Shown here: one piece after another, positions 1 to 58,360 of the stretch
Layout of the letters: each line of letters starts with the position of its first letter
Numbering within the stretch: the first letter of the stretch is position 1
Source: Marsupella aquatica
Taxonomy: Eukaryota > Plantae > Marchantiophyta
Length of the DNA: 64,000 nt
Assembly: GCA_973895155.1 (NCBI GenBank)
Contig: OZ316892.1
Location: 5,922,476-5,986,475, forward strand
Reading direction: 5' to 3'
Made by a program: the position numbers and the translations under genes
Notes under the pieces: model-generated
Databases searched by the model: none
The model's input: the letters and a program-made list of their open reading frames with translations, nothing else
What the model was told of the DNA's origin: nothing

Positions 1-434
1 GTCTTGAACACAAATCCACGAGCCACAATCTGATTGCCGATCCAGACCTCGACTTCATCGCCAGATACAATCGAGTCTCCAAAACTTTCCACCGACGATT
101 TCTCTGGTACAAAACCCGGAACCGTATCCTTTGTAGAACAGGAGGCATCCATTTTCGTTGTCGCTGGAGTTGACTGTGACTTCAAATATGCAAAAGGGGC
201 ATCCCAAATAATGCAAGAGTCGACAGCATCAAACAGGGTCCTGATCGGCTGCAAAGGGTAAGGAATTTCCCGTGATCCCTCATAGCACTTCTCAATGAGA
301 ACTCCTATACGATTACTTCCCAAATCAACATTACGCACTGAGTCACCCGGGTCAACCTTGAGGACCGTCCCGCAAGCAACTTCCACTCCGTCGATTACGA
401 GGCACACCTTGTCCCCTCGAGAGAAACTCCCCAT
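1..434 (-). CDS. Protein with tandem Tnp1/En/Spm-like (CACTA TnpA-associated) domains, running off the window edge
   Basis: Not in the ORF track. Manual translation from ATG 434 is open to base 1: MGSFSRGDKVCLVIDGVEVACGTVLKVDPGDSVRNVDLGSNRIGVLIEKCYEGSREIPYPLQPIRTLFDAVDSCIIW, then a second repeat begins (SIVSGDEVEVWIGNQIVARGFVFK). The pattern VA-G-V...P-P...TL-DA...I-W is typical of this domain. Confidence 0.7.
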   Translation of the reverse strand, partial: MGSFSRGDKVCLVIDGVEVACGTVLKVDPGDSVRNVDLGSNRIGVLIEKCYEGSREIPYPLQPIRTLFDAVDSCIIWDAPFAYLKSQSTPATTKMDASCSTKDTVPGFVPEKSSVESFGDSIVSGDEVEVWIGNQIVARGFVFK

Positions 435-557
435 TTTGAAAACGTGGCCCAAACCGTTGGATGTAGTTACCTCGAGATGATCTCGAGGTAAAGTGACTAC
501 AAAAACCCAAGTGTAGAAGTTTATCCCACAAAATTGTGTGATAGAGAAAATAAGAAG

Positions 558-790
558 CTCTTCTACCTCTAGACGATCTCGAGGTAGAAGAGGGACAAAA
601 ACACCAATACGTCAAAATTCAGAAGTATTTAGCTCGAGACGATCTCGAGGTAGAAGAGGGACCAAAACAACCAATATGTAAAAATTCAGAAGTATTTAGC
701 TCGAGACGATCTCGAGGTAGAAAAGGGACCAAAAACACCAATATGTAAAAATTCAGAAGTATTTAGCTCGAGACGATCTCGAGGTAAAAT
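558..790. repeat. Tandem repeat, 66-67 bp unit x ~3.3, one palindrome per unit
   Basis: Palindromes at 567, 633, 700 and 767 are separated by a near-identical spacer, GTAGAAGAGGGAC...CCAATATGTAAAAATTCAGAAGTATTTAG. Confidence 0.93.
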
Positions 791-1299
791 ATGAATCTCA
801 CTGAATATCGAACTAAGATTCTATACCTCCGACACTCTAAAAACATTTATTATAAGAAGGAAAACCAAATGCACCATTAGAAAGAAGGAGAAAGTGAATA
901 AGTTTGAGGACCAAACTTATGACTCGAGATGATCTCGAGCCAAAAAGGACATTGTATTTGACAAAGAAACTATTAGGAATAATAAGCCACCCAAAATAAG
1001 AACATATAAATGGCTCTAGATGATCTAGAGGAATGATTTGGTGCAATTAAGAAAGTAGGCTCCCAGTTTACTTCCAGACACTGAGAAAAAGCTTCTAAAA
1101 GGCCATCAAATAGAGGGAAAAGGCTTCCAAATGGATTTTGACCGACATTAGTATAAGCTGAAAAGGTTCGGTTTTCTAAAAGATAGGAGCTCAATTATTT
1201 TAGACCTCCTTCGGGGCTTAAAATGACAATTTCTCGAAATATCCTAAACACAAACGTAGACTCCAAAACCCTTGAAAAGAACAACAGAAAGAGATCAGA

Positions 1300-1790
1300 G
1301 CACAAATCTAGAGCCAGAGAGAGGGAGAGGGAGAGGGAGAGAGAGCAGAGAGGCAGAGGAAGAAACGAGCGAGCGGTGAAACGAAATGAGAAGAATGACC
1401 CGTTGAAGAGCAAGGAGAAGCAATATATAAAACCCTGACAGACAAAAAGGGCAATAAGACGGAATGGTTGAACTTGTGTCACGGCTAAGCTTGCGGCAAG
1501 GCTGAAGTACGGATAACAATAATGACAACACGTGTGACCGTAATAATGACTGTACGCACCCAGTAGGTTGCGTGGCAGCCTGCCTGAGCCTGCACGAGCC
1601 CTGGCACGCTTGGCACGGCCAAGGCCGACCCCCGAGGGGCTTATAGTGGCTTCAGGGGTTTTGAATTCCCCATTTTCACATTTGCCTCCTCGCCTCTTTG
1701 CCTCTTCGCCTCCTCGCGTCCCTTGCCTCCTTGCCTCTAGATCGTTTCGCGCTCTTGCCTCGAGATCGTTCTATTAGCCTCGAGATTGCA
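1300..1790. promoter_or_regulatory. Putative bidirectional promoter and 5' leaders of the divergent element genes
   Basis: GA-rich tract at 1310-1360 (pyrimidine-rich on the minus strand), TATATAAAA near 1424, GC-rich core at 1565-1640, and a CT-rich tract at 1683-1760 on the plus strand. Palindrome orientation switches across this region. Confidence 0.45.
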
Positions 1791-1939
1791 GAGGATCGAG
1801 ATTAGGGTTTTTCCTCGAGATTTTATAGGGTCAAGATTTTGTGTTTAGGCTCGAGCTTCGATAGGGTCAAGATTTTCTTTTTAGGCTCGAGATTTTTTTT
1901 AAGTTCTCAGCCCGTAGTACGTTCCTCTCATCACCAGCC

Positions 1940-4900
1940 ATGTCGACTGTTGTAGATTTCTCCAAGGAGGACTTCGCTGAGTACAACCTTGCAACCGTTG
2001 GCGAAGAGCTCCAGACCCATCTAGACTCAGCACATCAGATCCATCGCACCATTAAACGTAATTCTTCATCTTTGTTCTGTTCAGGTTTAACTCGAGATCG
2101 TCTCGAGCTTCAATTGGTCCACTTGTTTTTGGATTCCTTGGATGCCGTTGAGGCTCGAGATCATCTCGAGCCTATTGATGTTTTCTCCAATACTTTGTTT
2201 CAAAAGTTGTGATCTATTAATTGATTTTGCATTTGATGTAAGTGGCATGAGGCTCGAGATCGTCTCGAGCCAATATGCAATTCCTGCATGTGACCTAGTG
2301 AGATTTCTTCAAGTTGGAAACCCTTACCCTTCAAAATTGAACATCATATCCAAAATATCTAAAATTTCCTTCCTTTAGGGACTTCTGTGCCCTCCAACTC
2401 GTTCTGATCATTGACATCCGAACGGGTTTGTGGGTATCAGAAGTTAATGGAGAAAGTGGATTTTTTATCGTTGATTGAATATGATGTTAATTGTTGAATA
2501 TGATATTCAGATCACTCATTTGATATGTTAGGCTCGAGATCGTCTCGAGCCGAATATATCCCACACCGTCTTCCCTTATGTTCATTCGTCTCCCTTGGCC
2601 AATTTCTTCCAGTTGGAAGGACTCCTTGTTGTCTACTTCAATTACTAATATCCTTTTCAATGTGATCCAAGCTTGCCTTTTGGACCAGTTGGAATAAAGC
2701 CTCAACTGATATATATATGGATCGAGATCATCTCGAGCCCTTATCTTTTTCTTTTAAATAGATGGTGGCTTGAGATCATCTCGAGCCTATTGTGTTTCCT
2801 GGGATTCTTGGGTTTGAAATCTCTTTTTAAATTCCACGGATGAAATGGCATTGGAACATGTCTGAATAGTAAACTGAAGATCGAGATCATCTCGAGTCAC
2901 CTATTTGTTTCTTGGTTTTGTAGTACATGTTCCTGACAATTGCTACATTTTTGCTATACCAGGTGCGAAATTGGGATCGCCTAATTTGGTAGTCGAAGAT
3001 GAACATGCAATTGAGATTTCCTGCCCTGGACAGAGTTTATTTGGATTTTGTTGGGCCATTGAGCTTGCTGAAACTGAAGACATGGAAGGAACTATTATTT
3101 GTGTGAAGACGAGGTCTCCATCAGTCGATCCTCTGGTGTGCAGCCTTCTAGGGCCTGTTGTTTCTATTGTGACGAGTAACGGTAAGGACATGGTTTTGAC
3201 GGTGGAGAACCACGAAACAGGGAAGTGGGCTCTAATTAGACTTCACGCCAAAAACTACTCTTGCGATCTTAACATTGAACGTGCAGCCAGGAAACAACTG
3301 AGCGTGATATCAATGGGTTTCTTCCCCGAGGATTTTACTACAAGTAATTTGCTAGAAGATACTCCTATATCTAGAGCGGACATAATTTTTGGATTCCTTT
3401 ATTGTCGGAAGTATGGGCTTGATTGCGATGATGCATTCACGACTCCTTTCACGTGGAAGGTTTTGAGACTAATGTTGGAATCCAAATTGGGGGAGTTTGA
3501 ATCTATATCCCCTGATTTTGTGTTTGGAGCCGGAGAATTTGACCAGGATGCTTGTAAAAAGTGGGTGTTGTCTCATCGGAGACAAACAGGTAAAGTGAAA
3601 TCCGTAGCTGCAGGAGACAAGACCTCCGGTTCGGACAAAAAGGAAGCGAAGGTGTCTCAAAAGAGGAAGAGGGTTGACAAACCCGAAATCAAATCGAAGA
3701 AGGCTCATCCACCAAAAAAGTCCGCATCGCCCAAGGTAGATCTTATTCCGGCATCTTCCTCGGGTGTGAATGCACATACCGATGATGATGGCACTCCAAG
3801 AGATGCTCTGGGAGAAAAGAGCGTTAAGGAAGGAGCCGAAGTTCTTAAGGAGATTGAGGAGTATTACACATTTGGCATGAATGAAACTTTTGACATTCTT
3901 GTCACCAGTATAGATTCGCCATCTGCAGTTTTGGTTTATAGGATGTTCAATAAAGACCATGCCATGGAGGTCGCAAAATCCATGGTTCGAAACCCTGGAA
4001 TGGTACCAGCTGTGGCGGATTTAATTCCGTATTCAAGAGAGAGTTTCCAGTTGCTCCATTATGAGAATACTGCTGAGGATCGAAAGGAGTTTGAGTGGGG
4101 TGTTAAGAATAAGAAGGTGCAGTTCCTTGCAATCAGTGGACAACACTCGGCAAAAGCAGCTGTTTGGATCATAGGTTGGGCTAAGAGCGATGCAAAGTTG
4201 AAGGAGGTTGCGAAGAGTCTGCAATATCGAAAGTCATGAATTCTTTCGGACAGAACTCCAAGGACAATACTTGCTCAACACTCACAAAGGGCAAATGCTG
4301 TTAATAAGACAATGGAGTATGAGTCCTGTTTTCTTGATACTATGGTCCATGCGCGTCGACAGTTTGACGAGTGTGGCCGTCCGGAGAGACCCGTGATTGG
4401 GTCCAATAGACTAACGGATCATCAAAAGTTCCAGGTATATTTGAACTCAAATCCACTTCGAGCTCGAGATTGTCTCGAGCCTCGAGGTCAAGTTTCTGTA
4501 TTTGATTTATCTTCATGTATTCCCCATAAATTTTACCATAGTTCCTTAATTCTACCTCGAGATCGTCTCGAGCCTCAGATTTGTTTTGTACTGTTTGGAC
4601 CAGGATTTTATGGCCCTTGCCAAAATAACGACTGGAAAATCCGAACTGAGGAATATTTTTTGGTTGTTGTTTTCGGATGAGAACCTCTTCCGAACTTGGA
4701 GACAAATGTGCATCGATTGGGTCAAGGGACTTCTTCCGGATGGTCTAGGGGAGTTAGGTTCAAAAATAAACGGGAAAGCCCGGACAACAAAAATGATTAC
4801 GCCGGCATTGTTTAGATGCTTTGAAGGAGACCTGAGTAATGACGACATTCTGAAAGTTTTTACTGCCGTTCAACAACAGAAGGTTTTATTGAAGAAAGAC

Positions 4901-6430
4901 GGTCGTATTCGACAACGGCAGTGGACAGATGCCGAAATTTTTGTCTTGCTGGAGTATTGCTTGCAGATGGCAAACTCGACGGAGGTCTTAGTAATCTTTT
5001 TTGTCCGTCAAGGCCCATTGATAGGCCAGATTTAGAGTGCCTTTGAAAAGATTCGTCGTGAGAAGAAAGTGCACACAAAGCTGGAATACGGGAGCTACTA
5101 CCGTGATCAGGTGCCCAAGGAGGAGGGAGATTTTCTCATTGGAGCTCGGGACTCAATCATCTTTGGGGGAATTTGTTGTGAAGAGGAACCAGACTGGTCC
5201 CAAATTTTCTTTGATGACTTTTATGCGTTCTGGAACTACAGTGAGAAGTGGGACAAAGACTTCACAGTCTTGCCTTTGAAGGCCCCTACTGGGAACAACA
5301 AAGACCAATCAAAGGGGAAAGAGAAGCTCGATGAATCCACTGTTGATGTCGAAGTTTTGGAGAAGATGGCCCCATCTTATGAGATGGTCGGTCGGCGTGG
5401 TGGCTTTGTAAATCCGAGAGCAAAGCCTTTGCGAATGACAAAGCGTCTTGTTGATTATTTCTCGTGCCCAGGTCATACAGTGTTGGATTTCTTCTCTGGA
5501 GGACAGACATTGAAAGCTTGTGTCATTCTTGGTCGGGATTGTTTTGTGTATTCGGACACAGCTCAAGAGATGGAATTCACTGAAGCCTTTGCTCAGCTCC
5601 TTCATGACAACAAGCAAGTTTTATATGTGCCACCCAAGGAGCCGTTGCCATCTGAGGAAATTACTGCTGGTCCCCTCGTTCTTATAGAAGAGGCGGCCGC
5701 AGACATAGCTCCAGTGGAAGCCAGTGTTTATGAGGAAGTATTTGCGGAGAATTTAGAGCATCGCAAAATGGAGGGCCCAAAAATTACAAGCTACATGGAA
5801 GAGGAGGGTGAAATACTCCCTGAATTTGGAAATGATGCTCGAGATGATCTTGATGTTCCAAGTGTTCCTTCATCGGGTGGCCTTGGGGATGCACAACGTG
5901 AACAACAGTCTTCAACCTTGGATGTTGGCTGGGAATCCACCCTGCAGGATGCAGTTAGCCAACCAATTCCAAGCCCTCCTCAACTGGATGAGATTTTCTC
6001 TACTAAGAAAGCTAGTGGCTTCCATACTCCCCCTCAGGACGAGGCAGGTGCATCGTCCTCTCCCTTAGACCAAATGTTTTGCGCTTCAGAGAATAAGCTT
6101 GTTTTCACAGATTCTTCTACTGGAAGCCCCGTAATTCTCCCTTTTGTTAGGAAACCGGGGACTGAAATCGGTAGAACTGGTTACAAATCACTCAAAGCAA
6201 GTGCTACTCATTATGTTTGGACTGATGGACCGTCAAAAGGTCAACAAGTCTCTATAGAGCAGTCTGAGAAGATTATTCGATCTAGAAAGTATAGGATGGA
6301 TAAGTTCAAATTAGTGCCAGTTTGGTCTGAGCCAGCTCTTGTTGAGACCCTTCCCGGAGGGATAAATTTGGACATCCAAAACCAACTAGGAGATAACCTT
6401 CTAGATGAATTTGGGTCTTTCAGCACGTGA
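1940..6430 (+). pseudogene. Spliced ~1150-codon gene: ParB/Srx-like domain fused to a beta-class N4C/N6A DNA-methyltransferase-like region; two in-frame stops
   Basis: Exons 1940-2057, 2924-4434 and 4604-6430 join in phase with GT..AG ends. ParB-like motifs: ILVTSIDSP..YRMFNKDHAMEVAKSM, FLAISGQHSAKAA, LAQHSQRAN. MTase-like: NPRAKPLRMTKRLVDYFSCPGHTVLDFFSGGQTLKACVILGRDCF (compare HPTQKP..RLI...S.PGD.VLDPF.GSGTT..AA..LGR). Stops at 4237-4239 (TGA) and 5033-5035 (TAG) are each followed by the same open frame. Confidence 0.75.
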
Positions 6431-6484
6431 GGTTGAAACCCAAGTTAGTTTGAACTGTCCGGAAATTCAGCCGTCTAAATTATT

Positions 6485-7757
6485 ATGTCTACCTTCACAG
6501 AAATAGGCGGGCCCTTACCAATTGTGGAGTGCGTCGACAATAATCTCCGAAGATGTCCTAAATATTCTTCAACTACTGACCTTCCACAAACAACAGGTAT
6601 GATGTTGACTGTTGTTCATTCACTTGTGATGCTCGAGATCGTCTCGAGCATTCCTTTGTTTTATCTCCCACAATTCTAACGTTGGTGTTCGTACTTTGCA
6701 GGACCCTTGCCTCCACTTCACGGTCCGATCAGACGGAAGCTATTGATTCTTGACCTCAACAAAATGTGTTGGGATTCTGTCAAAACGCCAAGTTCCGGAC
6801 CGCGCCGTAGTGCGACAAGTGTCAATGGTGTCCACTGGGGGAGACGTGGAGGGTTTAACTTTATGTATGTTGAGCGACCCCATCTTCACGAGTTCTTAAT
6901 CGCAGCTTTTTCATTATTTGATGTTGCCATTTGGACTTGTGCAAGGAAACCCAGGACGGATGAAATGATTCATTTGATCTTCAATCAAGAAGAGAGAGCA
7001 ATTCAAGTTTATTCTCACTCAAGAAGATACATTCGATACTGGAATCCAGAGGCCTGACATTACCGATGGGAAGGCAAATATTCTTTTGAAGGATTTGAGG
7101 GTTGTTTGGAAACGTTATGGTGGATTATACGACGAAACTAATACACTCCTTCTTGATGACACTCCAATGAAGGCGTTTGCAAATCCAGAGAATTGTGGGT
7201 TGTTTCCTTCCTCATTTTCGCATCACTCCACGGATGATACATTCTTTCCAGAAATACTGTGGCCTCTGCTCAAGAAATTGTATCATGCCTTTAATCTTCA
7301 GCACTATCTTTTTATCAATCATCCAAAGTGGTCTATGATCAATGTTTTATCGGACAGGGATCAACAGGCTGCCATTTATGCTCTGTTGTCGGAGAGGTGG
7401 GGTAGTATGGTATGGGTTCCCAATGTTATCCATACAGTCTTGGATGTTACAGCGGACGAAATTCCCTGGGATATCAAAAATGAAGTGCAACAATTACCAC
7501 CAATGGAGGAATTGACGGAGGAGGCGATCAACGACCTTGCAAAGACATTAATTGGATATCAGGACACAGGACCCTACAGAGACAATCATCGGGGATTTGT
7601 TTTGGAAGTCTTGAGGTGTAGGGACCTCACAACAAAGTTCTGGAATAGAAAGCCTCTCAATTTCTGTAATCGCGATATGAAATATGACCCGTCAGGGTCT
7701 AGGTTTACTTGCTCAAATGAATTCTGTGGGGTGGAGGAGCATGAGATTTGGGTCTAG
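6485..7757 (+). pseudogene. FCP1/SCP (NIF) HAD-family phosphatase-like gene with a frameshift
   Basis: Exon 6485-6596, then intron 6597-6701 in phase. Motifs KLLILDLN, ERPHLHEFL, FDVAIWT, KDLRVVW, NTLLLDDTPMKAFANPEN. Frameshift in the AG run near 6990; the other frame reads EQFKFILTQEDTFDTG...NILLKD. Cys/His-rich C-terminus. Confidence 0.8.
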
Positions 7758-8489
7758 ATTATCTCGACCCTACACTGAACAGTTACGATGTGAGTTGTAC
7801 ATATACATATTCTTACTCGAAAAAAGAGTGAAGCTATGCGTAGTATCCATTTGAGTCTAGATGTTGTTGATCCTCATTTACTTGTAGATATGTTCTCAGA
7901 AAAAGGTTATTTGGGTCTAGACCCTATACAAAGGGAATAGCTAGAGATATAGATTCAACAACGGGTCAAAATTATGTGGACCCTACATTTGGGTCGAGAT
8001 AATCTTGACATAGATTTTTACATAGTAATTGATATACATTCAACAACCGGTCAAAACCATCTAGAGCCTGCATTGGGGCAGACGTGGTCTCGACCCTGTA
8101 AAAATAGGTTTTTTACTTTTATAATACATCACCGGTTTACCTTCCGTGTTACTTTGTGTAACTTGGTTATCAGGGTCATTTCAATTTATTATATTGTCTT
8201 ATTCTATTTTTTCATTGTTTATATTGTATATAATAAGAACACTTTAATGTCTTTTAATTAATAAGTATTAATAATTGATAACTGAATTATTTAATTAATA
8301 ATTTGGGCATTAGAATTGTAATTTTAGACCTCAAAAAGTGTATATTTGGCCACTAAAATGTATGCTTTTGGGGAACAAGTTATAGAACTTTTGGGGGTAA
8401 AATAAGAAATTTGAAGGTCAACTTCTGGACTAGAGAAATTCCAGTTTTAATGAATAGGGTGATATAGGTGCGCTACTGTCTGTGGTTGA

Positions 8490-8890
8490 AGGAGTGTGCT
8501 ACGTTCCTTCTTGCTGAAATGATAGGAAAGTTTATGTGATTGCTGTGTTGTTGCTCAAACAGGGAGTGCGGGCGGGAGTGTGGCTGTTGCAAGTGCTGCG
8601 TTGCAGCTGCTCAAACAAGAGGTGGGTGCGGGGAGTGTGGCATTGCTACTTGCTGAAACGGAAGCTGCTACCAGGTTGCTGAAATGGAAGCTGCATGCTA
8701 GCTTGCTGAAACGGGAGCGAGAGTGCTGCGTTGCTGCTCTCTCTCAATGCTTGCTCAAACAGGAGTGCCAGGGCTGCTGCCAGCATTGCTATGTACCTTG
8801 CTCAACCGGGAGGTGGGCGCTTCCTGCTTTGATGATCGTGCTTGGTTGCTTGCTATTGTTTCATGCTCGTGCTTGCTTGCTATTGTTTGA
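8490..8890. repeat. Degenerate short-unit repeat (TTGCTCAAACAGGGAGTG / TTGCTGAAACGG)
   Basis: The motif recurs at about 8551, 8608, 8650, 8677, 8703, 8751 and 8798. Confidence 0.6.
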
Positions 8891-8891
8891 A

Positions 8892-9168
8892 GCCCATGCC
8901 AGAAGACACCTCCCACATTCCCTCCGACCTGCAGTGTTTCTTTACCCAACTCAGGTCCGTTACTCAAATCAAATTTAATGATTCCATATCTGCTAGATTG
9001 GCTGTCAACTGCAGCTGAACGAGTAGCTGTGTAGATGTATCGGGTCTTCTTGCCAATATAATTCTTGTTAATCGCGGGATATTCAGTATCGAACTCCCCC
9101 AGCCTTTTGTCCGTAGTCTCTCCAGTCTTCCAGTTGATCTGATACTCATGCAATCGCGGGCAAGCGTC
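8892..9168 (-). pseudogene. Carotenoid cleavage dioxygenase (CCD1-like) gene fragment
   Basis: Translation RLHEYQINWKTGETTDKRLGEFDTEYPAINKNYIGKKTRYIY...GIIKFDLSNGPELGKETLQVGGNVGGVFWHG matches the recalled plant CCD1 segment (LYEMRFNMKTG...DFPRINE.YTGKKQRYVY...GIIKFDL..E.GK..LEVGGN). No other CCD exons are visible. Confidence 0.85.
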
Positions 9169-9169
9169 A

Positions 9170-9796
9170 GTGATCCGAAGCAGATCCGCTGTTGGCGTTC
9201 GGCACGTAACTAAAACGATTTCATCTCCTTCCTGCCATCCATTTGCGACGTGGAAATTGATGGCTGAAGGAAAGTCGGACGGATACTATAGTACTGGCAA
9301 GAGAAAAGTGCAAGAAGCCAATCCTAACTCATGTTTTGTTGATGTTGGCACTGATTGTGCAATTGCATTTGAGTCTGATGATAATCCTGCTCCAAGTACT
9401 AGATCTGGAAAAAGAAAGGGAGTAAAGAATAAGGCTATGGAGGAGGCAATCTCAGCAGGTAAGAAATATTTTTGGTTGGGTCGGATTGTCCAAATGAGAC
9501 AAAAGTATGGTAGTAGGTGGGGCAATTGTCGGTCACCAATTGATTTGATGGATAGGCCAACTCCACTCGCAGGGCAATCAGGTAGCATTTGTGAACTGTT
9601 GTTAAATTGGTATAGTCCTATTGGTAAAAGCAAAAGTGAATTCAGATATGATACCACTGATTTGAAATGGATGGATATTGAAATGGTCATTGCTAGTGTT
9701 AGTTTAACCATGAAAGAAGGGGTTATGGATCGTATCTATGTGTTGGATCTAATAGATGGACTTGCATTGGATCAATATCTTCAAACAATGGTATGA
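9170..9796 (+). CDS. Hypothetical TE-associated protein (beta-rich, weakly BAH-like)
   Basis: 208-aa uninterrupted ORF with natural composition; YFWLGRIVQM...LLLNWY resembles BAH-type strands. Function uncertain. Confidence 0.45.
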   Translation: MIRSRSAVGVRHVTKTISSPSCHPFATWKLMAEGKSDGYYSTGKRKVQEANPNSCFVDVGTDCAIAFESDDNPAPSTRSGKRKGVKNKAMEEAISAGKKYFWLGRIVQMRQKYGSRWGNCRSPIDLMDRPTPLAGQSGSICELLLNWYSPIGKSKSEFRYDTTDLKWMDIEMVIASVSLTMKEGVMDRIYVLDLIDGLALDQYLQTMV

Positions 9797-9882
9797 ATGT
9801 CATGCTATTATTTAGTTTTTGAGAGTCTGTATATATATTTTGTTTTGTTAATATTAGTGGGTGTAGTGGGATAGGATAGGGG

Positions 9883-9942
9883 GTGACGGATTGGCAACTT
9901 GAGATCCTTTCTCAATTAGGGGTTCAATTCCCCTCCGTCACA
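9883..9942 (+). other. tRNA-like fold lacking a D-arm
   Basis: Acceptor stem GTGACGG/CCGTCAC (7 bp), stem TTGAGA/TCTCAA, T-stem AGGGG/CCCCT with loop TTCAATT. Confidence 0.45.
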
Positions 9943-10324
9943 TGTTACATCTCTCAACAGAAGTTTTAAATGGAGTATGGATGGAGCATGGGATTGGTGA
10001 TCAATGGGTGGAATGGATTATTCATGTTGTGACCTTAAAGGCCATCGCACTTATGCACGTAAGGTTTATATTGGGATGACCTTTTAGGTACACTATAAAT
10101 GATGCATTGAAATGATCAAAGTTTAAGGTCGAAAAAGGTGCAAGAACTGTTACAGGGCGTGCCATGTCTGACATACGACTTCACAAGGTACTGACATAGA
10201 CTTATCTTTTCTTTCTAGGCATTTTTTATTGATATGTGACACTTTACTTCACAAATTATAGGGGCAATACAAATTGGATTTTAGACTCTTAGAAGAAAGA
10301 AAGAGGGAGAAAAAAAATTTCAAC

Positions 10325-11074
10325 TTAATAAGTATGGGGGTCTAGGCATGAAAACGTCGCAGGTGATGGGGGGGTCCTCCATATAGTGAGACCCCCGAGG
10401 TTCACATTTACGTTCTGAGAAATTGGTGGTTCCGTTTCGGGGCGCTCATCATTGTCTGAGCCTTCATCAACATACAATTCGCGGTGACCAGGCAGCCCAC
10501 ACGCAACTGTGCTCGGAGGCGAAACATTAGCTCTCTCCCCATAAATTGCATGCATACGCTCGAAATATGGGCAGATCTTCTCGTACTTGTCAGCGAGAGT
10601 AAGGCCCTGTCTCAACTCCGCTTCTATCAATCCAGCCCCTGAGTCTCGCTTCATCGCCAGGGCCTCCTTGTACTTCTTAATGTACCGCTGAAACCTTTTC
10701 CCAAGATTATCTCCTGTGGTCACAAATTTGGGGAAGCCGCTATCATGAAGGTCAATGAGCATTTTTTTGAACACGGTCTTCTTTGGCGGATGTCTACCAA
10801 TGACAGATGGGCGGCTACTGGTGCCATTCAACATAGCAAAATTCTCAGGGACTTCCAACCAATCAACAATGTGCGCGAGCAACAGCTTAATACGATTATC
10901 TCCACCTGAGGCCATTGTTGAAGCTGCTGTGACAATGTTGGCGTCGGAGTCGGGAGGCTGGGAATCACGAATGACAACTTCTGAAGGCGAGTACCGTGGT
11001 CGATGCGGGTAGGGGAAAAGATGATGGATCACCAGAGGAATGTCCTGTGTGAACGCCATGTTTGCCATTGTCAA
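10325..11074 (-). CDS. Myb/SANT-like (trihelix-type) DNA-binding protein, Harbinger ORF2-like
   Basis: IVDWLEVPENF...KKTVFKKM...LGKRFQRYIKKYKEA...SGAGL...KICPYFERMHAIYGER; the CPYF..M..I.G.R ending is characteristic. No adjacent transposase seen. Confidence 0.65.
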   Translation of the reverse strand: MTMANMAFTQDIPLVIHHLFPYPHRPRYSPSEVVIRDSQPPDSDANIVTAASTMASGGDNRIKLLLAHIVDWLEVPENFAMLNGTSSRPSVIGRHPPKKTVFKKMLIDLHDSGFPKFVTTGDNLGKRFQRYIKKYKEALAMKRDSGAGLIEAELRQGLTLADKYEKICPYFERMHAIYGERANVSPPSTVACGLPGHRELYVDEGSDNDERPETEPPISQNVNVNLGGLTIWRTPPSPATFSCLDPHTY

Positions 11075-11977
11075 TCCTCCCTACACAATTCATTTGGCTA
11101 TCAAATTCCGCGAGGGAATTGCACTTTCAAAATTTCTCCACAATCGACGCTCGCATTCATGGACCTTCAAGCACTTTGCGGCGGGTTCAAAAACTGGAGC
11201 GGGGGAAGAGTTTCGCATATTAGATGGTTTTTGATGGTTACTGCCTTAACCATGGTTCGCCCTAAACCCACGTTAAATGCACTGCGGGCCCCTTTCACAT
11301 CTGACTACCCCAGGCAATGCTTGCCCGGGCTCGCCCTCTCGCGGGCCGCCCGAGTGCCTCCGGGGCCGCCCGTGGGCGTGATTTTTTTTTGGTATTTGAG
11401 ACGCCCTAGTACGTTGCGCTTTAACACATATACCATCCCTCTTGCTGACCAAACAGTAAGGAACATGATTGGCCTTTTAGAAATTCAATGCTATTTATAA
11501 GTATTCTACAACTACTAAGGGGCTAAAGATGACTTTGCGAGAGGCCGGGCCTCATTGTTTTTTTCTTCCCTCAGAGATTAAATCTGAAGTGTAATGAGTG
11601 TAAAAGGTTGCAGTTGACTTTACTTGAATTGGGGCCTCATTCAAGTATGGTGTCTACTGCATCGCAAAGCAGTAAGACCAAGGAAATGCTGATATGGAAC
11701 GCTTTCTTTGTCTAGAAGTTTAGATCACCTCCAAAGGTGATTCAAACATTTCCAACCTTTGGCTCCTCATTCAAGGGATCTGCAATTATTGAACTTCAAT
11801 TCGAATATTTTTTGGTCTGTGTCTATGAACACTAGTGCCCCAAGTCTTGATTTTTGATCTGGAGTCTATCTTTATAATAGGAAGTGCTTTGGTGACAAGT
11901 GCCCGAAGTCTTGTAAAGGTAGATGATCTGCATCGGCGGAATCGGAAGTATGCTTCTGACAAGAGGGCGTGCATGCT

Positions 11978-14496
11978 CTATCTGTGAGGGGGAGCAATAA
12001 ACGAGGCCTCGTCGGTGTCGGCCGTCGTTCCAATTTTGGAGGTCCACAAGCTAGACAGCGTGATTCGGATTGGCGAGCCCTTCTTAGTACGAGGCATATA
12101 GCTACGGACGAGGTTCTCGTCTGGATCAACAAGGGACCATTTGAATCTCTTCAGGAAGTGGTGAAGAAATATGAGGATCTCCATCTTGGCGAACTCCATT
12201 CCTGGGCAGATGCGTAAGCCCGCTCCGAACGGAAGGAACACGTATGGGCTTGGCCGACGGGCAGCAGAAAACCTGGACGGCTCATAGCTGTCTGGGTTTT
12301 CGAAGAAAGCAGGTTGTCTGTGCGACCTGTCTTGACTCCAGAATATCTGCATGTGCACGGGCAGCAGCCAAGAAATCAGCACAGCTTAACATTCAATCTC
12401 AGTAGCAATCAGTCCACTAAAACATAAATGCTGTTAGAAATTGGTAACACGTGCCAACCATTCTGCCCCTTTCCTTGGGACAATGTTGGATTAATAATCT
12501 TTCGTGTACAGGAAATCGCATCATCTAGTCCAAAGGTATATGATCATACAGAAAACATTTTGAAACGGGATTTTGACGGTGATAGTTGGGGGTGGAGCTT
12601 CCTGAAGAGCATAGAAAACCGATGCTCTTACCTTGAATTTGCACCAGGAGATTTGGACTACGAGATAACAGTCATTGTTCCAGAGACGACAAAGATAATC
12701 TGTTCTGAGTGGGATGACGATAGAAATAACCAAGCGAATTGTTTGAGGTATTGACTGACGTGTTCATGATCATGACTAGAGCGCCAGATCCTTGAAACTA
12801 GGACTGAATGTAGGCACAGACTGGACAACTCTGAGGCATTGCTTAATACAAATTATTCTCTCCTTGAACTTTGCGTTGACCAACCGAAACTAGGATTCAA
12901 GACACAATGGTCAAGAACGTAAGAGACAGGACAAGAAACGAACCTTCCAGCCCTTGAGAATGGTGTAACCGTTGTATTGGAAATCCCTGGTCGCTTGACG
13001 GTATCCAAAGGGTAAAATTGTCGTCTGTCGCATCGTCTCTTGTACAACCTGCCATGTGTAGATCATGCTCCTCAAATCCTCCATCTTCAACGGCTCCCCT
13101 TCCTTTTTCCTAGCCGCAATAAGCCTATGCTCTGCACATGATATTGAACGACTTTAATCTCTTCTTAGCAGTCCATTCTACTTACCCAGAGCAAACAATT
13201 TACCAGCGTGAGTTCATCATCATGCACTGAGGCCGGATTCCTTCGATGGGCTGGTAGCGCATTGCTCTACGGCACAGTTACATATACGGGAAGAGAAAGT
13301 GCCCGAGGAAAGAAACCTGTACTGTACGCGTACCTTAATTTGTAAACTCACAAGGGGCGTGGTACAATTATTTAAGCTGTGGCATAAATGAGAAGCAAAA
13401 TTGAGTAAAATTGGATGAAATTGGGTATGATCTGCTGGGGATGTGTAGATTCTATACCCTCTATGAGCTTCTCGTAAACTTCCGGATGCTTGGCAATGTC
13501 GCTGATAGTCAAGGTCAGAGTGGATGCGGTCGTGTCATGACCTGCATACAGCATGATCACAAGATTATTTTGTATGAATTCATCGCTCCAAACCTGACCG
13601 CTTTCATCAGGCTGACTGAGCAAGACCGAGAGCAGGTCTTGATCCGGAGCAGCTGTTCCTTCTTTCAGCTCCTGCCTTCTGCTCTCCATCAAGTCAGCAA
13701 CAATTCCGAAGAGAACAACTCTTGCTTTGAGAGCCCGGTGGAATACGAATCCTGGCAGGTTGATTGGCCAGCTCAACAATCCTCTGGACCATTCTTTGAA
13801 TGCACGGCTCAACTTCTCTATTTCTGCACTTCCAGTTTTCACGGTGAGCCCGAAACAGAGTTCCATGATAAATTCGAATGTGAATTTGGTTAATATATTC
13901 TGAGTGCAGATCTCTTCTCCCGTGTCAGCTTTGCCCAACCAGTGTTTGTTCAAATGCCCAAGAGAATTCCGTTCCATCTGTTCCACGTAACGAAGCAAGG
14001 ATTCGGGCCCCAAGAACTTGCCCACAAGGTGATGGCGAACAACTCTGTGCGCTTCCTCGTCTAGTGTCAGGAGAGAATTTACCACTGTTAGATCAGCCAT
14101 TGACTTTGGGTACGCCTTGTGGACCAATTTGTGTTCCGAGCTGAGGAGAAATCTATTGCCTGCAGGCGGGTCCAGAAGGACAACCGTGACCCCCATGATG
14201 GACAGCTTAAAAATGGGGCCATATTTGGCCACTTTCTGGTCGAAAAACGTCTTCATTCCGTTTCTGCTATAACTTCTCATAAACATCAGGGTATCCCACA
14301 TCACATAAGGCAGCCCCACACGGCCTGGAGGAAATACTACTCCACTCGCCTTCCTCTTCTTCTCGCTCTGTGCTTCAAGAATCCAAAATGTACTGCTGAG
14401 AGCCGAGCTGAGAATCAGAACCGTGACGAGCACGATAATGTTTCCCGTCCCTAATCTATCAGAAATGCAGTCCCAAACACTCGTCGACTGATCCAT
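11978..14496 (-). CDS. Cytochrome P450, CYP85 clan (CYP716-like), 3 exons, ~531 aa
   Basis: Exons 14496-13458, 13131-12944 and 12346-11978. N-terminal TM anchor, PPGRVGLP hinge, I-helix AGHDTT, ETMR (ExxR), PSRF, heme motif FGAGLRICPG. Confidence 0.93.
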
Positions 14497-17520: not shown

Positions 17521-19115
17521 GTATCATGAGAGGTCTTGGGCTGGTGTAGGTAGTTCACATCAAAATTTGTTTTAGCTTTTTATTAGTCGTCTTTTTATTA
17601 GTCGTCTTTTAGGGCCAGGTACTTTACTCTCATCTCCGTGGCTTCATCGACAGCTCAGTCTTCCTATTTCTCACGGTGGTTTTGGGCTTACTTCCACTGA
17701 GCGCCTTGCACCTTTGGCCTTCTTGGGCGCGTGGGCGGCCGCCTTCTCATTGTTGGCAGATCGTTTCCTTACTGAGGATCGACCTTTTTTACTTTCATCT
17801 CTCATGGAGGTCGAGGAGGGTTCCCTCCCATTTCAGGTTCATTTGCGCACGGCTCGGTCATCATTACCCGATCCTGTTCGAGCTGCGTTACCTTCATTCC
17901 AGGAGTTTTTATCCTTGGACCCCGTCCGTCTTCAGGCAGACCTTGCTGGGCGTATGCACGCTTTCACCCTCTCCAGCATCCTCACCGAGGCACCTGACAC
18001 GGACCGAGCTCGGATTCTTTCTTCCGGAGGGAAGGGCGCAGGAGGCTGGCTTCAGGCCAATCCAGTCATTCCTCACCTGCGGATGTCTTCAGCGGAGTTT
18101 GCGACAGCCATGCGCCTTCGTATGGGCTTGCCCCACCCACTTCTTGCTGGTTTACCTCCTACTTGCACTTGTGGGAAGCCTTGTGATGCCACAGGTGTCC
18201 ATCTTCTTCGATGCAGTTTGGGCGGCAAAACCATTTTTGTTCACGACGCTGTGAGAGATGCGACTGCTCAGGTTCTCTCTGGCTCTTTGGTCTGCGCGCG
18301 GCGGGAGGTGGTGCTCGAGTTACCTGGTCCTCCATCACAGCGGTTACGGGTGGATCTTACCATGGTCCGTGACGGTCACCGTACTTTGGCAGATGTAGTG
18401 GTGGCAAACCCATTGCGCCAAGACATCATTGGGACAGCGGCAACAACGGCAGGGGCAGCAGCATCACGAGCAGCACAAACGAAGGAGGCCAAATATGCTG
18501 CACGAGCTTCATCTGATAGCTTCCTGCCCCTTGCTCTTGAGATATTTGGGCGTCTTCATCATCAGTTCGACGGGCTTCTTCGCCAAGCTGCTCGGGATGT
18601 TCACGGCCGGATGGGTCCCACCGGGCCCCCGCTATCTGTTTTGACCACGCACTTTCGCCAACGCATTTCAGTCACCTTACAGCGTGCTCAAGCTCGGGCC
18701 GTCTATCGTCGATCTCTGACAGTGGGTGCTAGTGTGACTCCGCAGCGGCTAGCCCCCCTAGAGGACATTCCTGTCCCACTTGCCGATCTAGTTTCGACAC
18801 TTGATGTAGACCACTAGCTTGTAGTCACATTTGCTAGGTATGATGAGGACCTCGGTCCATTTGCGGTAGTTTTAGTTACTCTTTCTTGGTTTTTAGGGGT
18901 TTCCTTTTGCTCACTTCTTTTAGTTCCTCTTTCTTGGTTTTTAGGGTTTCCTTTTGCTCACTTCTTTTGCGTTTGGTTTTGTCCACTTGGGACCTCTCTT
19001 GTTTATTCTTTTGTACTCTATTTGGCCTTTTTCTATATAAAGTATGTGTATATTCTCTTTGGGAAAAGAAGTCTGCACGACATCCCATGTTATCCAAAAC
19101 GGTTCCATCTAAAAG
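17521..19115 (+). mobile_element. 5'-truncated non-LTR retrotransposon with restriction-like endonuclease (CRE-clade-like)
   Basis: Open frame about 17612-18817: RT thumb LPISHGGFGL, AGGWL..P, zinc knuckle CTC..D..G.HLLRC, HDAVRD, RVDL, ADVVVANP, KEAKY, FLPLALEIFG, RQRISVTLQR. T-rich 3' UTR with a ~45-bp duplication. Candidate TSD AGTAGAGTAAA at 17510-17520 and 19116-19126. Confidence 0.85.
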
Positions 19116-30452: not shown

Positions 30453-31639
30453 ATGAGGTGAGCGATAACTTTTTGAAGTGTTTTTCGTGTGTCGAAGAAA
30501 TTGTAGACTTTGGGTGTGCTGAGAGATGGATTTTCTTCGCTTTTGCGACTGCGCGCGCACTTTCAGCCTGCGGTCGAAATAGAGGAAATGGTTTCTGATG
30601 GGGTGATTTGGTTTTGGGGATTGCAGTAAGCTTCAGAGTGATGTCCTTAGGGAAGCCATCACCCAGATAGTGACGGAATCTAAGGAGAAGAACCGGAAGT
30701 TCGTCGAGACAGTTGAGCTGCAAATTGGGCTCAAGAACTATGACCCTCAAAAAGACAAGCGTTTCAGCGGTTCCGTCAAGTTACCTCATGTCCCTCGCCC
30801 GAAAATGAAGGTCTGCATGCTCGGAGACGCTCAGCATGTGGAAGAGGTGAAGTCCCAACTAACCCTAATTTATTCGTCATACGGCTGATTAGCTGCGAGT
30901 TGTTTAAACTGATCCTTGTGATTTTTGTCGACTGTTGGATTCCCGCCCCGTTTTACTGAAGTTTGTCTTCGGCAGGAGAATTTCCGTGTCAATTTAGTTT
31001 TTCCCTCGTGTCAGGCAGACAATGCGTGGACGGTCTCGTTTTTCTGTCGTTTGTCGAACGAATTAGGAGGAACTCAAACATTGTACGTAATGCAGGCAGA
31101 GAAGCTCGGTCTTGACTACATGGATATCGAGAGCCTTAAGAAGATGAATAAGAACAAGAAGCTTGTTAAGAAGCTCGCGAAGAAATATCATGCTTTCTTG
31201 GCTTCCGAGGCAGTCATCAAGCAGATTCCCCGTCTGTTGGGTCCAGGTTTGAACAAGGCTGGAAAGTTTCCTGCTCTCGTATCACATCAGGAATCTTTGG
31301 AGGCTAAGGTTAACGAGACAAAGGCCATGGTCAAGTTCCAGCTGAAGAAGGTTCTGTGCATGGGAGTTGCTGTCGGAAATCTCGAGATGGACGAGAAGCA
31401 AATCTTTTCAAACACCCAGCTGAGCGTGAATTTCTTGGTGTCCCTTCTCAAGAAGAACTGGCAAAACGTAAGTGTTTCATAAGAAATGTCGATGATTATT
31501 TGGATTAGTCATGGGGCGTTTCATGCTGTAATTGCTTGCTTGTGAGGCTCTTCGTTGGCTTACGACAGTGGGACTGTTATTGCAGGTGAGGGTGTTGTAC
31601 CTCAAGACCTCCATGGGAAAGCCTGTGCGCGTGTATTAG
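30453..31639 (+). CDS. RPL10A: 60S ribosomal protein L10a (uL1), 4 exons, 216 aa
   Basis: Exons 30453-30457, 30627-30846, 31096-31467 and 31586-31639 sum to 651 nt. [13 protein letters not shown]...[22 protein letters not shown]...[21 protein letters not shown]. Confidence 0.98.
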
Positions 31640-35449: not shown

Positions 35450-36135
35450 CGTCGTCACTCATCGATCACCCATTCACGAGCCCTCTGATTCGATCTACTC
35501 TGGATTGTACATTGCTATAGTGTAAAATCGAGGGAGCATCCTCATTCTGCACTCTTCTTGTTGTCAAAGTGATAAGAATTGTTGTGGATAGAAGAAATCC
35601 GTCATCAGTCGCCCATTTAAGAGCTGGCACTCCATCTACTGTGGATTGTACATTGGTGTTGTGTACAATCGATCGAGCATCATCATTCTGCACTCTTCTT
35701 GTTGCCAAATTAATAAGAACTGTTGTGGAGGCAGAAGAAATCCGTCGTCAGTCGCCCATTTAGGAGCCCTCTCACCCATCTACTGTGGATTGTACATTGC
35801 TGTAGAGTACAATCGATCGAGCATCATCATTCTGGACTCTTCTTGTTGACCAATTAATAAGAAATTGTTGTGGAGACAGAAGAAATCCGTCATCAGTCGC
35901 CCTTTCACGAGCCCTCTCACTCCATCTACTGTGGATTGTACATGGCTGTACTGTACAATCGATCGAGCACCATCGTTCTGCACTCTTTTTGTTGTCAAAT
36001 TAGTAGGAATTGTTGTGGAGACAGAAGAAATCCGTCATCAGTCGCCCATTCACGAGCCCTCTCACTCCATCTACTGTGGATTGTACATGCATTGGCTGTA
36101 CTGTACAATCGATCGAGCACCATCATTCTGCACCC
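35450..36135. repeat. Tandem repeat, ~145-bp unit x ~5
   Basis: Anchor CTACT(G/C)TGGATTGTACA at 35495, 35636, 35780, 35926 and 36071 (periods 141-146). Confidence 0.93.
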
Positions 36136-39100
36136 TTCGTGAGTTCTTGTGCCCGAAATTCGCGTGCTCGCGTGCGTTGTGCAGACGTGCGTCCTACAGT
36201 CCTGCAGACTCTAGCGGAGCCTCTATAGTCTATACCGCAAAGACTCCATTACTGTACTCCAAAGTCCATACTGTTCGAGCATTTCGTTCGGCACTTTGTT
36301 TGGGACAACAGTGGCAATTAAGCCGTTGATGAACGAGTCCACTCCGGGATAGCGAGTTAGTTGAACCTTCGGTCTTTTCTAAGCTCCGGACTGGCTGGCA
36401 TCCGAGTCTCTGGTGGTCTTAAGGTGTCAAGCCTGACCCGAGGACGCATAATTGTAGATTGATTCGCTTCGCTCGGTTGCGCAGTACGTACGGTCTGTTT
36501 GTTCGGTTTCTTCCTTTTCTCTTTTTCTTGGCCTTCACTCGCGGCTGCGGGCAATTTTCTTTGCTGCCCTTCTCTTCTTCTCGACAGTAAGGTCATCATA
36601 ACCGACCATCAATTTGAGATTGGGTGTTCTGGACAGATGTTCATTCATTTGCAGGCATCTTTTCTCTCCTTCGCTTCTCCTCTTCTCGATAGTAGATCAT
36701 CACAACAGATCATCAGCTTGATGTGGACAAATCTCCATTCATTCACTGCAGGCAGCTTTTCTTCTCTGCTCTTCTGCTCGACAAGAGATCATCATAACAG
36801 ATCATAAGCTCGGGATTGTTGTTTTGGACAATCTCCATTCCTTCATTTACCGGTTGTTCGCTTTGAATTTCTCTTCTCCACAGTAGATCATCAAATTCGG
36901 CTGGTTGATGGAGAAAGCTCTCCGATTCATTTGTTGGCAATGCTCTCCTCGTCTTCTTCCTCTTTAGAGTAGATCATTACCAGCTTCGGGTTGTTGTGGA
37001 TAGATCTAGCTCTGCATTTCAAGCCTGTGGAGGTTTTGGAGAGAAATAATAGAGAGGTTTATGGTTTGGTTTTGAGTGGTGTTGTGTTCCTTTAGCCATT
37101 GCTAGATCTTAAGAGGTTTTTTTTTGGGTTTTTTCGTAAGGAGCTTTGCATTTTTCCGTGTTATAAATCTGGGTCGTCAGCCTGGTCTGGCGATGGTATT
37201 CCTTCAAAGGGGAGAGGATTGACGAGCCATTGAATTTAATCGAAGCGAGTAGTCTGGTTTAGATTTCATTCTTTACTTACATTCGCTCGTCATTCTTGGG
37301 GTTCCGTGAGCTTATTGCTTCTGCTTCGGCTTCCTCGCCAATTCCCATGATTGTGTAGATCTGCAGCTACGCGGAGATTCAGCCAATTGGACTTCCGCGA
37401 ATCAAAATCAAGGTATGGAACGGGATCTGGAAAAGGTCTTTATTAAGGTCGTGGTGATCAATCACTCTTTACGTAGTCTCCGCTTTGCTCCGTGACTTTG
37501 CTCTCGATTGCTCTCGCTATCTCAACAACGTGAATAAGGTCTACCTTAGGCCCAATCAATGACTTTCGGGAATATCAAGGAACGGAGCGTTTGGAACAGT
37601 GTGGATCAATTTGGCTTCCCGTTTCTCCTCTCATTACTCTGAATTGAGTCATTAAACCCGTATCGGATTCGGCGTTGTGAGATGGATCCGTATCGGGGGA
37701 GAGATAATTGTAAAGCTCGGGCCTTCTCGATTGATTTGTCGCCGTTGTGGCCTCCGACATCTTGCATGATTGGATCTGCTGTGCTGGAGTTCTTAGCATG
37801 GCGGTCCCGTCAACCAAGAGCAAGTCTTTGAACAAATTGACCAATCTCTCTTCTTCTCGAGTACGTGACTGGCAAGATCTCTGAGAAATTGGCGTCGCAA
37901 TGATGTCTCCAGGATCCTGCTGGACGAGTCTGCCGGGTCCGCACTGGGCTGTCGACATTGTTGCGTCGCAAACAGATTAATCAGAAAACCCTCTGAACGT
38001 CAATCAAGGAAGGTCGTGTTTCACAAATTGCAGACCGTTTCGTGGAATCATTGGCTGGCTAGCGGCATTGCTCTTAATCGGCACTGTTGCTTCGAATTAT
38101 CATGGGATGTCGGCCAAGTAAGCTGCTGTTTCTACCTTCCAGACCGTTTCGTGGAATCGTTGGAAGGCTGCAATGTTTCCTTCCTTACTCACTTTCGTTA
38201 CCCCGAATTTCGTTACCCCGAATTATCATGGGATGCAATCGAACCGACTTTATTGCGTCGATTGACGTGGATACACCAGCTCTGCCTGGTTACTTGAGAG
38301 TGAGCGTCTTTGATTGCTCACCGAATAACAGTTGAGGGTTGTTGCGAGGTGCCATGAAGAGCTTTCGTTCCCCTATTCCAGATCGTTTTGTGGGATTTAT
38401 CATTTTGCGCTTCATTGCTTGATTGTTACTCAGCTCTGTTACTCAGCTTTATCGTGGGATGTGACCGGGCCCCTGCTCCTTCGGGTCTCTCTTAACGCTG
38501 GTTGCCAGATTTGCTGCCTTACTTCGGAGTTAGATGGATCAGGATCAGCTGTACCAGACCAGCTTTAGCTTTACTGGCTCGCTTTCCGTGATCTGGGTGA
38601 TCAGCTTTGCCAGCTCACTTCAGCGTCCAGAGATCGAGAAAGACCGCTCACATGAGGGCCTCGCATCTCAGGGCCTGTCGTGACACCGCCCCCTCTCATG
38701 GAAAATGCCTCTGATCGGTAGCCTGCATTGTCCACTCCTTGTCACCTTTGCAGACTCGAGCTATGGTAGAGTGTAGAGAGTACGTACAAGCGGGGACAAC
38801 CTCTTCTTGGCACACTCTTTCGCCAGGATCAAACTGACTCAAACACCTTCAATGCTGGGTTTGAAAGAGGTGGAGAAGGTTTATGCCTGCTCACGTTCAC
38901 ACGCGACCGGTGTAATGCCCTGTCACCTTGGTTTTTCGAGAGAAATCCAATTCCGTGTGATCGCTTGCAGCAAACGAAGCCAACGGTAGCAAACCGTGCT
39001 TGATCATGGGCTGCATCGTCATCGCCTGAAGAAAACATAGCAGATGGTTGTTTCATCCTGCCCACTGTGTAATGTTTTGCTGCTGTCCGTCAGTCTTGCC

Positions 39101-56430: not shown

Positions 56431-58360
<1,930 letters not shown>

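Follow-up and report, generated by a model that had tools for sequence, protein, structure and literature searches.

The subject of this study is a window of 64,000 nucleotides (nt) from the liverwort Marsupella aquatica (Marchantiophyta; GCA_973895155.1, contig OZ316892.1), which is the whole stretch of DNA that was analysed and to whose positions all of the coordinates refer, and in particular a high-copy, transposon-like repeat at its left end (1-10400), the non-coding DNA of which carries many copies of a short palindrome that is built around two XhoI sites. We consider, with a probability of roughly 55%, that the palindromes are sites, specific to this family, at which a paired DNA-binding protein encoded by the element itself would dock. 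The left open reading frame (ORF; 3-434, minus strand, ATG at 434) is beta-rich and leaves the window. Gene 2 (1940-6430, plus strand), which was delimited using tblastn of its homologues, Pfam and models of the homologues, consists of exons 1940-2057, 2963-4434 (or from 2924) and 4604-6430, and the gene layout suggests a divergent promoter with 5' leaders at 1250-1940. Gene 3 (plus strand), whose exons 6485-6596 and 6702-7757 were placed by the ATG and splice sites, encodes a NIF/FCP1-like phosphatase domain that was detected by Pfam NIF in two frames (E 1.9e-8 and 1.1e-5), with a frameshift near 7000 in the window copy.

The repetitive nature of 1-10400 was evident from the contigs of four DNA-type runs from three labelled organisms. 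In run X1, the summed contig depth, which is not equal to copy number, was 10^3-10^5 over most of 1-10400 compared with 260-570 at 11201-12000, and across the four runs, 1-10400 exceeded this flank by one to three orders in most bins. The contigs that fall on it are 80-99% alike and many of them are diverged; 1-10400 is a repeat family and not a single locus. Its left end lies outside the window, while its right end may fall at about 8900, or at 10400 if the low-copy stretch at 8950-9283 is a captured insert. No transposase, terminal inverted repeats or target-site duplication were identified within 1-10400, the left end of which lies beyond the window edge; the scanned ORFs had no match to a transposase family, there was no Pfam match to a VANC-type protein or a Mutator transposase in this element, cut as it is by the window edge, and no CACTA-type termini were defined. 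We call the element transposon-like because of its copy number, its divergence and its cargo. The copy in the window is broken, as gene 2 contains stops at 4237 and 5033 and has lost about 143 codons at 4900/4901 relative to the homologue P0049; the stop at 5033 is absent from most of the other copies, and the contigs of two runs continue beyond 4900 with other sequence.

Exact matches to CTCGAG-N5-CTCGAG numbered 12 in the window, for which 100 shuffles gave an expectation of 0.00, and when up to three mismatches to the 17-mer were permitted, five near-copies brought the non-coding total to 17, with at least one XhoI site (one or both) lost in five of them. Seven copies lie upstream of the left ORF on the minus strand (471-1030; starting at 471, 567, 633, 700, 767, 923 and 1014), seven lie in predicted intron 1 of gene 2 (2091, 2154, 2253, 2533, 2721, 2769 and 2880, plus strand), two in intron 2 (4463 and 4556, plus strand) and one in predicted intron 3 (6632, plus strand), where it sits inside a 10-bp stem. 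This count, its division among the four places and the coordinates are those of an earlier sequence-only reading, and they held, as did the extended stems that it had described (AGG..CCT, ATG..CAT and a 35-bp hairpin). The unit proper is a 15-bp core, TCGAGA-N3-TCTCGA, which is mostly flanked outside by C..G. With no more than one arm mismatch, 1-10400 contains 19 occurrences of this core (against a shuffle mean of 0.03) and the 53.6 kb of 10401-64000 none; the 19 comprise 16 of the 17 listed copies, an exonic copy at 5838 and the variants at 7753 and 7994. The location of all 17 copies in non-coding DNA has a p of ~5e-7 when 14 are taken as independent, although no sense frame of the motif holds a stop codon. 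The claim that the motif is restricted to non-coding DNA stands for these copies but not for the exonic one (5838-5854, minus strand), which is degenerate, with one core mismatch, and reversed in orientation. The sequence-only reading had also missed two sets of related sites. Five TCGAGAT half-sites on the plus strand (1760, 1780, 1796, 1815 and 1887), partly within a 36-bp tandem repeat, point along gene 2 near its start, and about seven decayed variant palindromes, which share this core and have GGG..CCC outside it, are clustered at 7750-8100; there, 7753 and 7994 match the core with one mismatch and 7856 and 8051 with three, while three further look-alikes were chosen by eye.

The flanks of the palindromes are mostly unrelated (median 20/60 identical), and the earlier reading held that the copies did not arise by simple segmental duplication; up to five of the seven upstream copies, however, can be attributed to local duplication. 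Positions 567-786 form a tandem array of a 67-bp unit (3.3 copies, 94% matches), to which the copy at 471 is akin, and therefore the 17 copies are not all independent. Neutral turnover is a rival explanation: inside a repeat, slippage, template switching and gene conversion would let a short quasi-palindrome spread and mend itself, and its absence from the exons would reflect only constraint on the protein. Template switching yields symmetric arm changes and extended stems, and both the copy at 1014, which carries the same symmetric change in both arms, and the excess of stem extension are what it would give. The 67-bp array and the identity of 24 of 24 bases between the distant copies at 4550-4573 and 632-655 point in the same direction, and conversion from motif to motif could mimic part of the sparing of the arms that is described below. 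Nevertheless, we regard neutral turnover as an unlikely account, as the arms are spared while the flanks vary, the spacer is constant in length in 17 of 17 copies, CpG-rich arms are kept and the window has no copy outside of the element.

The sparing of the arms was observed in two ways. Within intron 1 (2058-2962), 32 positions vary at 30% or more of the depth among the element copies, and none of these lies within the 119 motif bases (p ~0.011), a count that was drawn from four runs and two labelled organisms. Moreover, the spacer CpG is CA or TG in eight of the 17 copies, whereas the arm CpG shows a transition in only one of 34 cases (Fisher p 3e-4, the copies not being independent) and the same transversion in three of 34. 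The CpG-rich arms are kept in introns whose masked observed-to-expected CpG ratio is 0.34-0.61. The spacer is 3 nt long in every copy, and on the sense strand it reads TCR or TTG in all 17 (two-sided p 6e-5 when 15 units are counted); the polarity of the motif follows the direction of transcription in all 17 copies and reverses across the divergent promoter region. It had been suggested that the palindromes resemble selected cis-sites, and their confinement to a single repeat element, uniform polarity and freedom from variable sites bear this out.

A sense-strand spacer that never varies beyond TCR and TTG is also what would be expected if the motif acted in RNA, as a stem of 7-10 bp, closed by a 3-nt loop, in the growing transcript that is read by a protein of the element or the host and tunes splicing or helps the element escape RNA silencing. 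The reader could possibly be the inactive methyltransferase fold of gene 2, by analogy with METTL14, chains of which are among the structural matches of this fold. RNA folding gives hairpins at the copies, with z of -1.6 to -4.5, and the distance from the donor to the first palindrome is 33, 28 and 35 nt in introns 1-3, respectively, although this regularity was noticed post hoc. However, the antisense strand folds equally well, the Rfam scan returned only two weak matches, both of which were far under the gathering score, the sequence of the arms is kept beyond what pairing requires, and half-sites without a partner occur. An RNA signal is, in our opinion, doubtful.

The proposal that the motif belongs to a micro-element that marks or creates introns can be judged from the introns themselves. 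All three introns bear palindromes, as had been stated, but all three are predicted and only intron 2 is backed by homology. Intron 1 (2058-2962, plus strand, GT..AG, phase 1) had been given an end at 2923; an acceptor at 2962 fits as well and may be the true one, as the ORFs called in the homologues P0001 and P0002 start with acceptor-like residues at the end of intron 1. An imperfect 170-bp inverted repeat (67%) at 2330-2498, inside this intron, is possibly a small insertion. The boundaries of intron 2 (4435-4603, plus strand) agree with those proposed earlier, since P0049 is continuous across it and P0001-P0003 stop at its donor, and its position is conserved in the family. Intron 3 (6597-6701, plus strand), which is predicted from its splice sites, belongs to a separate downstream ORF, gene 3, because the homologues of gene 2 finish at the point of its stop (6430) and share its final residues.

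The three introns (905, 169 and 105 nt) have only the motif in common. Calls of Introners require introns that are alike end to end (PMC9860276). Such similarity was not found among the three introns of the window, and intron 2, the one of the three for which this was tested, was not seen to have been gained together with the element. At locus L001, which has ~30% protein identity and contains the only related intron that could be read, a 109-nt GT..AG intron (99-207) lies at the position of intron 2 and shares its phase but has neither an XhoI site nor a palindrome (best arms 4 bp), which makes intron 2 either older than the motif or independent of it. The comparison of introns in a relative, which had been proposed as a check, thus went against the creation of introns by the palindrome. 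In addition, the palindromes lie 28-855 nt inside the introns and never at their ends, seven of the 17 lie upstream of an ORF rather than in a predicted intron, no consistent target-site duplication surrounds the 17 copies, and the 53.6 kb outside of the element, where a mobile micro-element of the miniature inverted-repeat type (micro-MITE) might have left copies, contain no core. The presence of the motif in three of three predicted introns and its mostly unrelated flanks (median 20/60) are what an Introner-like or independently mobile unit would share with the data; on balance, this explanation has been largely refuted, and the element has no bearing on the origin of introns.

Gene 2 provides the candidate for a reader. 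Its product follows a plan of a weakly PH-like N-terminal domain, a ParB/Srx domain, a helical region, a methyltransferase, an acidic linker and a small C-terminal domain, with the ParB/Srx fold at ~3850-4300 and a beta-class methyltransferase fold at ~4900-5600. The fold assignments come from models of the natural homologues P0001 and P0049. In the P0001 model, the top 11 Foldseek rows for residues ~310-460 were ParB or sulfiredoxin (E 0.007-0.06, probability 0.95-0.99), and the top seven rows in VIA included PadC (Z 8.2, root-mean-square deviation (rmsd) 3.4, 99 aligned), KorB (Z 7.9, rmsd 2.8, 93 aligned) and sulfiredoxin; a ParB/Srx fold is predicted by two methods that agree, with scores that are modest. 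The methyltransferase fold scored higher, as residues 463-737 of the P0049 model matched CcrM (Z 17.3, rmsd 3.8, 222 aligned), PvuII (Z 15.6) and RsrI (E 2.6e-7), a viral entry named ParB/Sulfiredoxin matched the methyltransferase model at rank four, and Pfam N6_N4_Mtase was detected on gene 2 (E 2.4e-6). Among the 20 clusters that were looked up, the named homologues were from Riccia sorocarpa (six proteins) and Calypogeia fissa (two); homologues from these two species include KAL3695087, CAM6091065 and CAM6098565. One related locus was found in metagenome contigs, and four short methyltransferase-like matches in viral contigs; there were no relatives in the prokaryote genomes that were searched and no phage record for P0049.

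If the methyltransferase were active, the element might mark itself, with gene 2 as an N4/N6 methyltransferase and the palindromes as its targets. The matches to CcrM and PvuII fit this idea, a motif I-like DFFSGG is retained, and enzymes that form N4-methylcytosine (4mC) occur in liverworts (10.1101/2021.02.12.428880). However, the catalytic motif [DNS]PP[YFW] was found in none of the 31 family proteins, many of which are fragments, and the strand that presumably carries motif IV, as assigned by its pattern and secondary structure, reads D-[FL]-x-R in the eight rows that cover it, this region being missing from the window copy. Only motif I was aligned in a profile comparison with a canonical methylase. 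Judging from these residues, the fold is probably inactive and self-marking by methylation is very unlikely; both domains of gene 2 look degenerate.

The interpretation that we favour, that of docking sites for a protein of the element, is consistent with the confinement of the core to one element, the sparing of the arms, the fixed spacing, the half-sites and the variant with exchanged outer pairs. The dyad form of the site suggests a dimer, which would read the two arms of 6-7 bp. Local duplication and conversion would have multiplied the copies, which would account for their common orientation within each half of the divergent pair; with sites this dense, intact copies could become loaded with the protein from end to end, and the loaded protein may keep them and their kin transcribed or unmethylated, in the manner of VANC or TnpA. 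If the palindromes are binding sites, then we find it reasonably probable that the product of gene 2, rather than that of the left ORF or of a transposase that was not seen, is the reader. ParB is a bacterial class of proteins that loads on palindromes. A more specific possibility, which is speculative and rather improbable as a whole, is that a phage-type fusion of ParB and a methylase was repurposed in liverwort transposons as a catalytically dead clamp, specific in sequence, on parS-like palindromes of the element, a clamp that would spread and shield cytosines from host methylation, while the linked CTD-phosphatase-like (C-terminal-domain-phosphatase-like) gene would act on transcription. 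If true, this would be an anti-silencing system of bacterial parts in a land plant.

Several observations weigh against binding to duplex DNA by such a protein. The unitigs behind the absence of variable sites from the motifs often stop near the motifs, and differences near unitig ends were filtered, although several diverged contigs nonetheless span the motifs. A shared polarity is not required by a symmetric duplex site. Pairing of the flanks with their own partners exceeded that in permutations (p 0.006-0.02 over two to six bases; not significant, with p 0.22, when only the first base is taken), and this excess of stem extension points to hairpins in RNA or single-stranded DNA. The related intron at L001 does without the palindrome. 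As for the protein, the cytidine triphosphate (CTP)-binding motif of bacterial ParB is an arginine-rich GxxRxxA, and the ParB-like domain of the family has GQHS or RQHS in eight of eight rows (AISGQHS or a close variant), without the arginine. No helix-turn-helix (HTH) was identified, and the helical region of P0049, which was barely tested, had matches of only Z 5.

Several other features of the window deserve mention. The left ORF has two beta-rich segments that are alike, one where it begins and one at the window edge, and neither two homologue searches nor comparisons with Pfam, PHROGs, NCBIfam, PDB and Atlas gave a useful match; a likeness to En/Spm-associated beta domains found no support. 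A fragment of the RPE65/carotenoid-oxygenase type (8755-9285, minus strand, Pfam E 4e-16) lies where the depth is low, with high-copy DNA on either side, and may be a captured host fragment. The stretch at 9283-10400 is high-copy and holds the ORF 9143-9796; it may be part of the same element or of a second one. The next ORF, at 10325-11080 (minus strand, 251 codons), has a moderate depth, and neither of these two ORFs had a match in the libraries that were searched; the latter may resemble the Myb/SANT-like proteins of Harbinger elements. A tandem array of a 145-bp unit (4.6 copies, 87% matches) occupies 35469-36138, and a 413-codon ORF at 17576-18817 (plus strand), judged by eye, resembles the C-terminal portion of a non-LTR (non-long-terminal-repeat) retroelement protein. 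Host-type genes that were recognised by eye are a cytochrome P450 (11978-14532, minus strand), a piece of ribosomal protein L1/L10a (30922-31482, plus strand) and a peroxidase exon (56431-56916, minus strand).

A literature search yielded no account of the motif or of a fusion of ParB and a methyltransferase in liverwort repeats. PstI palindromes are short and dispersed, are built from two restriction sites and lie in non-coding DNA; unlike the palindromes described here, which are nuclear and within the window belong to one element, they are organellar and genome-wide. They occur in the mitochondria of Neurospora (PMC1864894). The exact 17-mer was also found in viral contigs, at 31 loci with one exact match each, two of which, GC-rich, had additional near-copies; these loci are regarded as unrelated. 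In the short viral contigs of ~52% GC (L008, L012, L017, L019, L020, L022-L025, L027 and L033), a single 17-mer lies mostly ~230-320 bases from one end, often within a longer stem, and it is probably an unrelated conserved hairpin.

With ParB/parS, SopB/sopC and KorB with its operator, the element shares a ParB/Srx fold and a repeated dyad site, which in some of these systems is arranged in tandem. Unlike bacterial ParB, gene 2 is a eukaryotic, intron-containing gene that lacks the arginine of the CTP motif, and neither an HTH nor a ParA partner was found for it. Its beta-class fold and motif I region are like those of MpDN4MT1 of Marchantia, rotifer N4CMT and the phage ParB-methylase fusions, whereas its catalytic (D/S)PP(Y/F) is replaced and the gene is multi-copy and repeat-borne. 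Other eukaryotic ParB-linked methylases, distinct from the gene 2 family, are described in PMC4738411.

A close parallel is VANC of the VANDAL elements, which are Mutator-like elements of Arabidopsis. According to PMC5735166, VANC21 binds a motif of 9 bp within introns, intergenic DNA and the non-coding parts at the termini, in one orientation and in tandem repeats. As in VANDAL elements, the motif described here is dense in non-coding DNA, with the same orientation and tandem repeats, its family specificity being judged by comparison with a single relative (L001) and with the remaining DNA of the window. The two differ in that the VANC motif is asymmetric and 9 bp long compared with a palindrome of 15-17 bp, and in that the element has ParB and methyltransferase folds and no Mutator transposase was seen in it. 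TnpA of En/Spm reads dense clusters of motifs at the ends of the element (bioRxiv 10.64898/2026.08.24.746577), and it is likewise an element-encoded regulator that reads family-specific motif clusters, for which gene 2 is the candidate here; its sites are terminal, it uses tandem HTH motifs and it is reported to be confined to flowering plants, whereas the sites here are internal and no HTH was found. To these systems, our analysis adds a fusion of ParB and a probably dead methyltransferase, an adjoining phosphatase gene, a hint of constraint on the sites among copies and a test against the creation of introns. The recognition and protection by transposons of their own copies have been worked out in detail for two systems of flowering plants, VANC and TnpA. 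This element offers, in a liverwort, a lineage that also has a 4mC enzyme of bacterial type, a defined site of 15-17 bp, evidence that variation among the copies spares it, and bacterial folds as its candidate reader; if our reading is correct, it would bring the design of ParB plus palindrome, together with a pseudo-methyltransferase module, to land plants.

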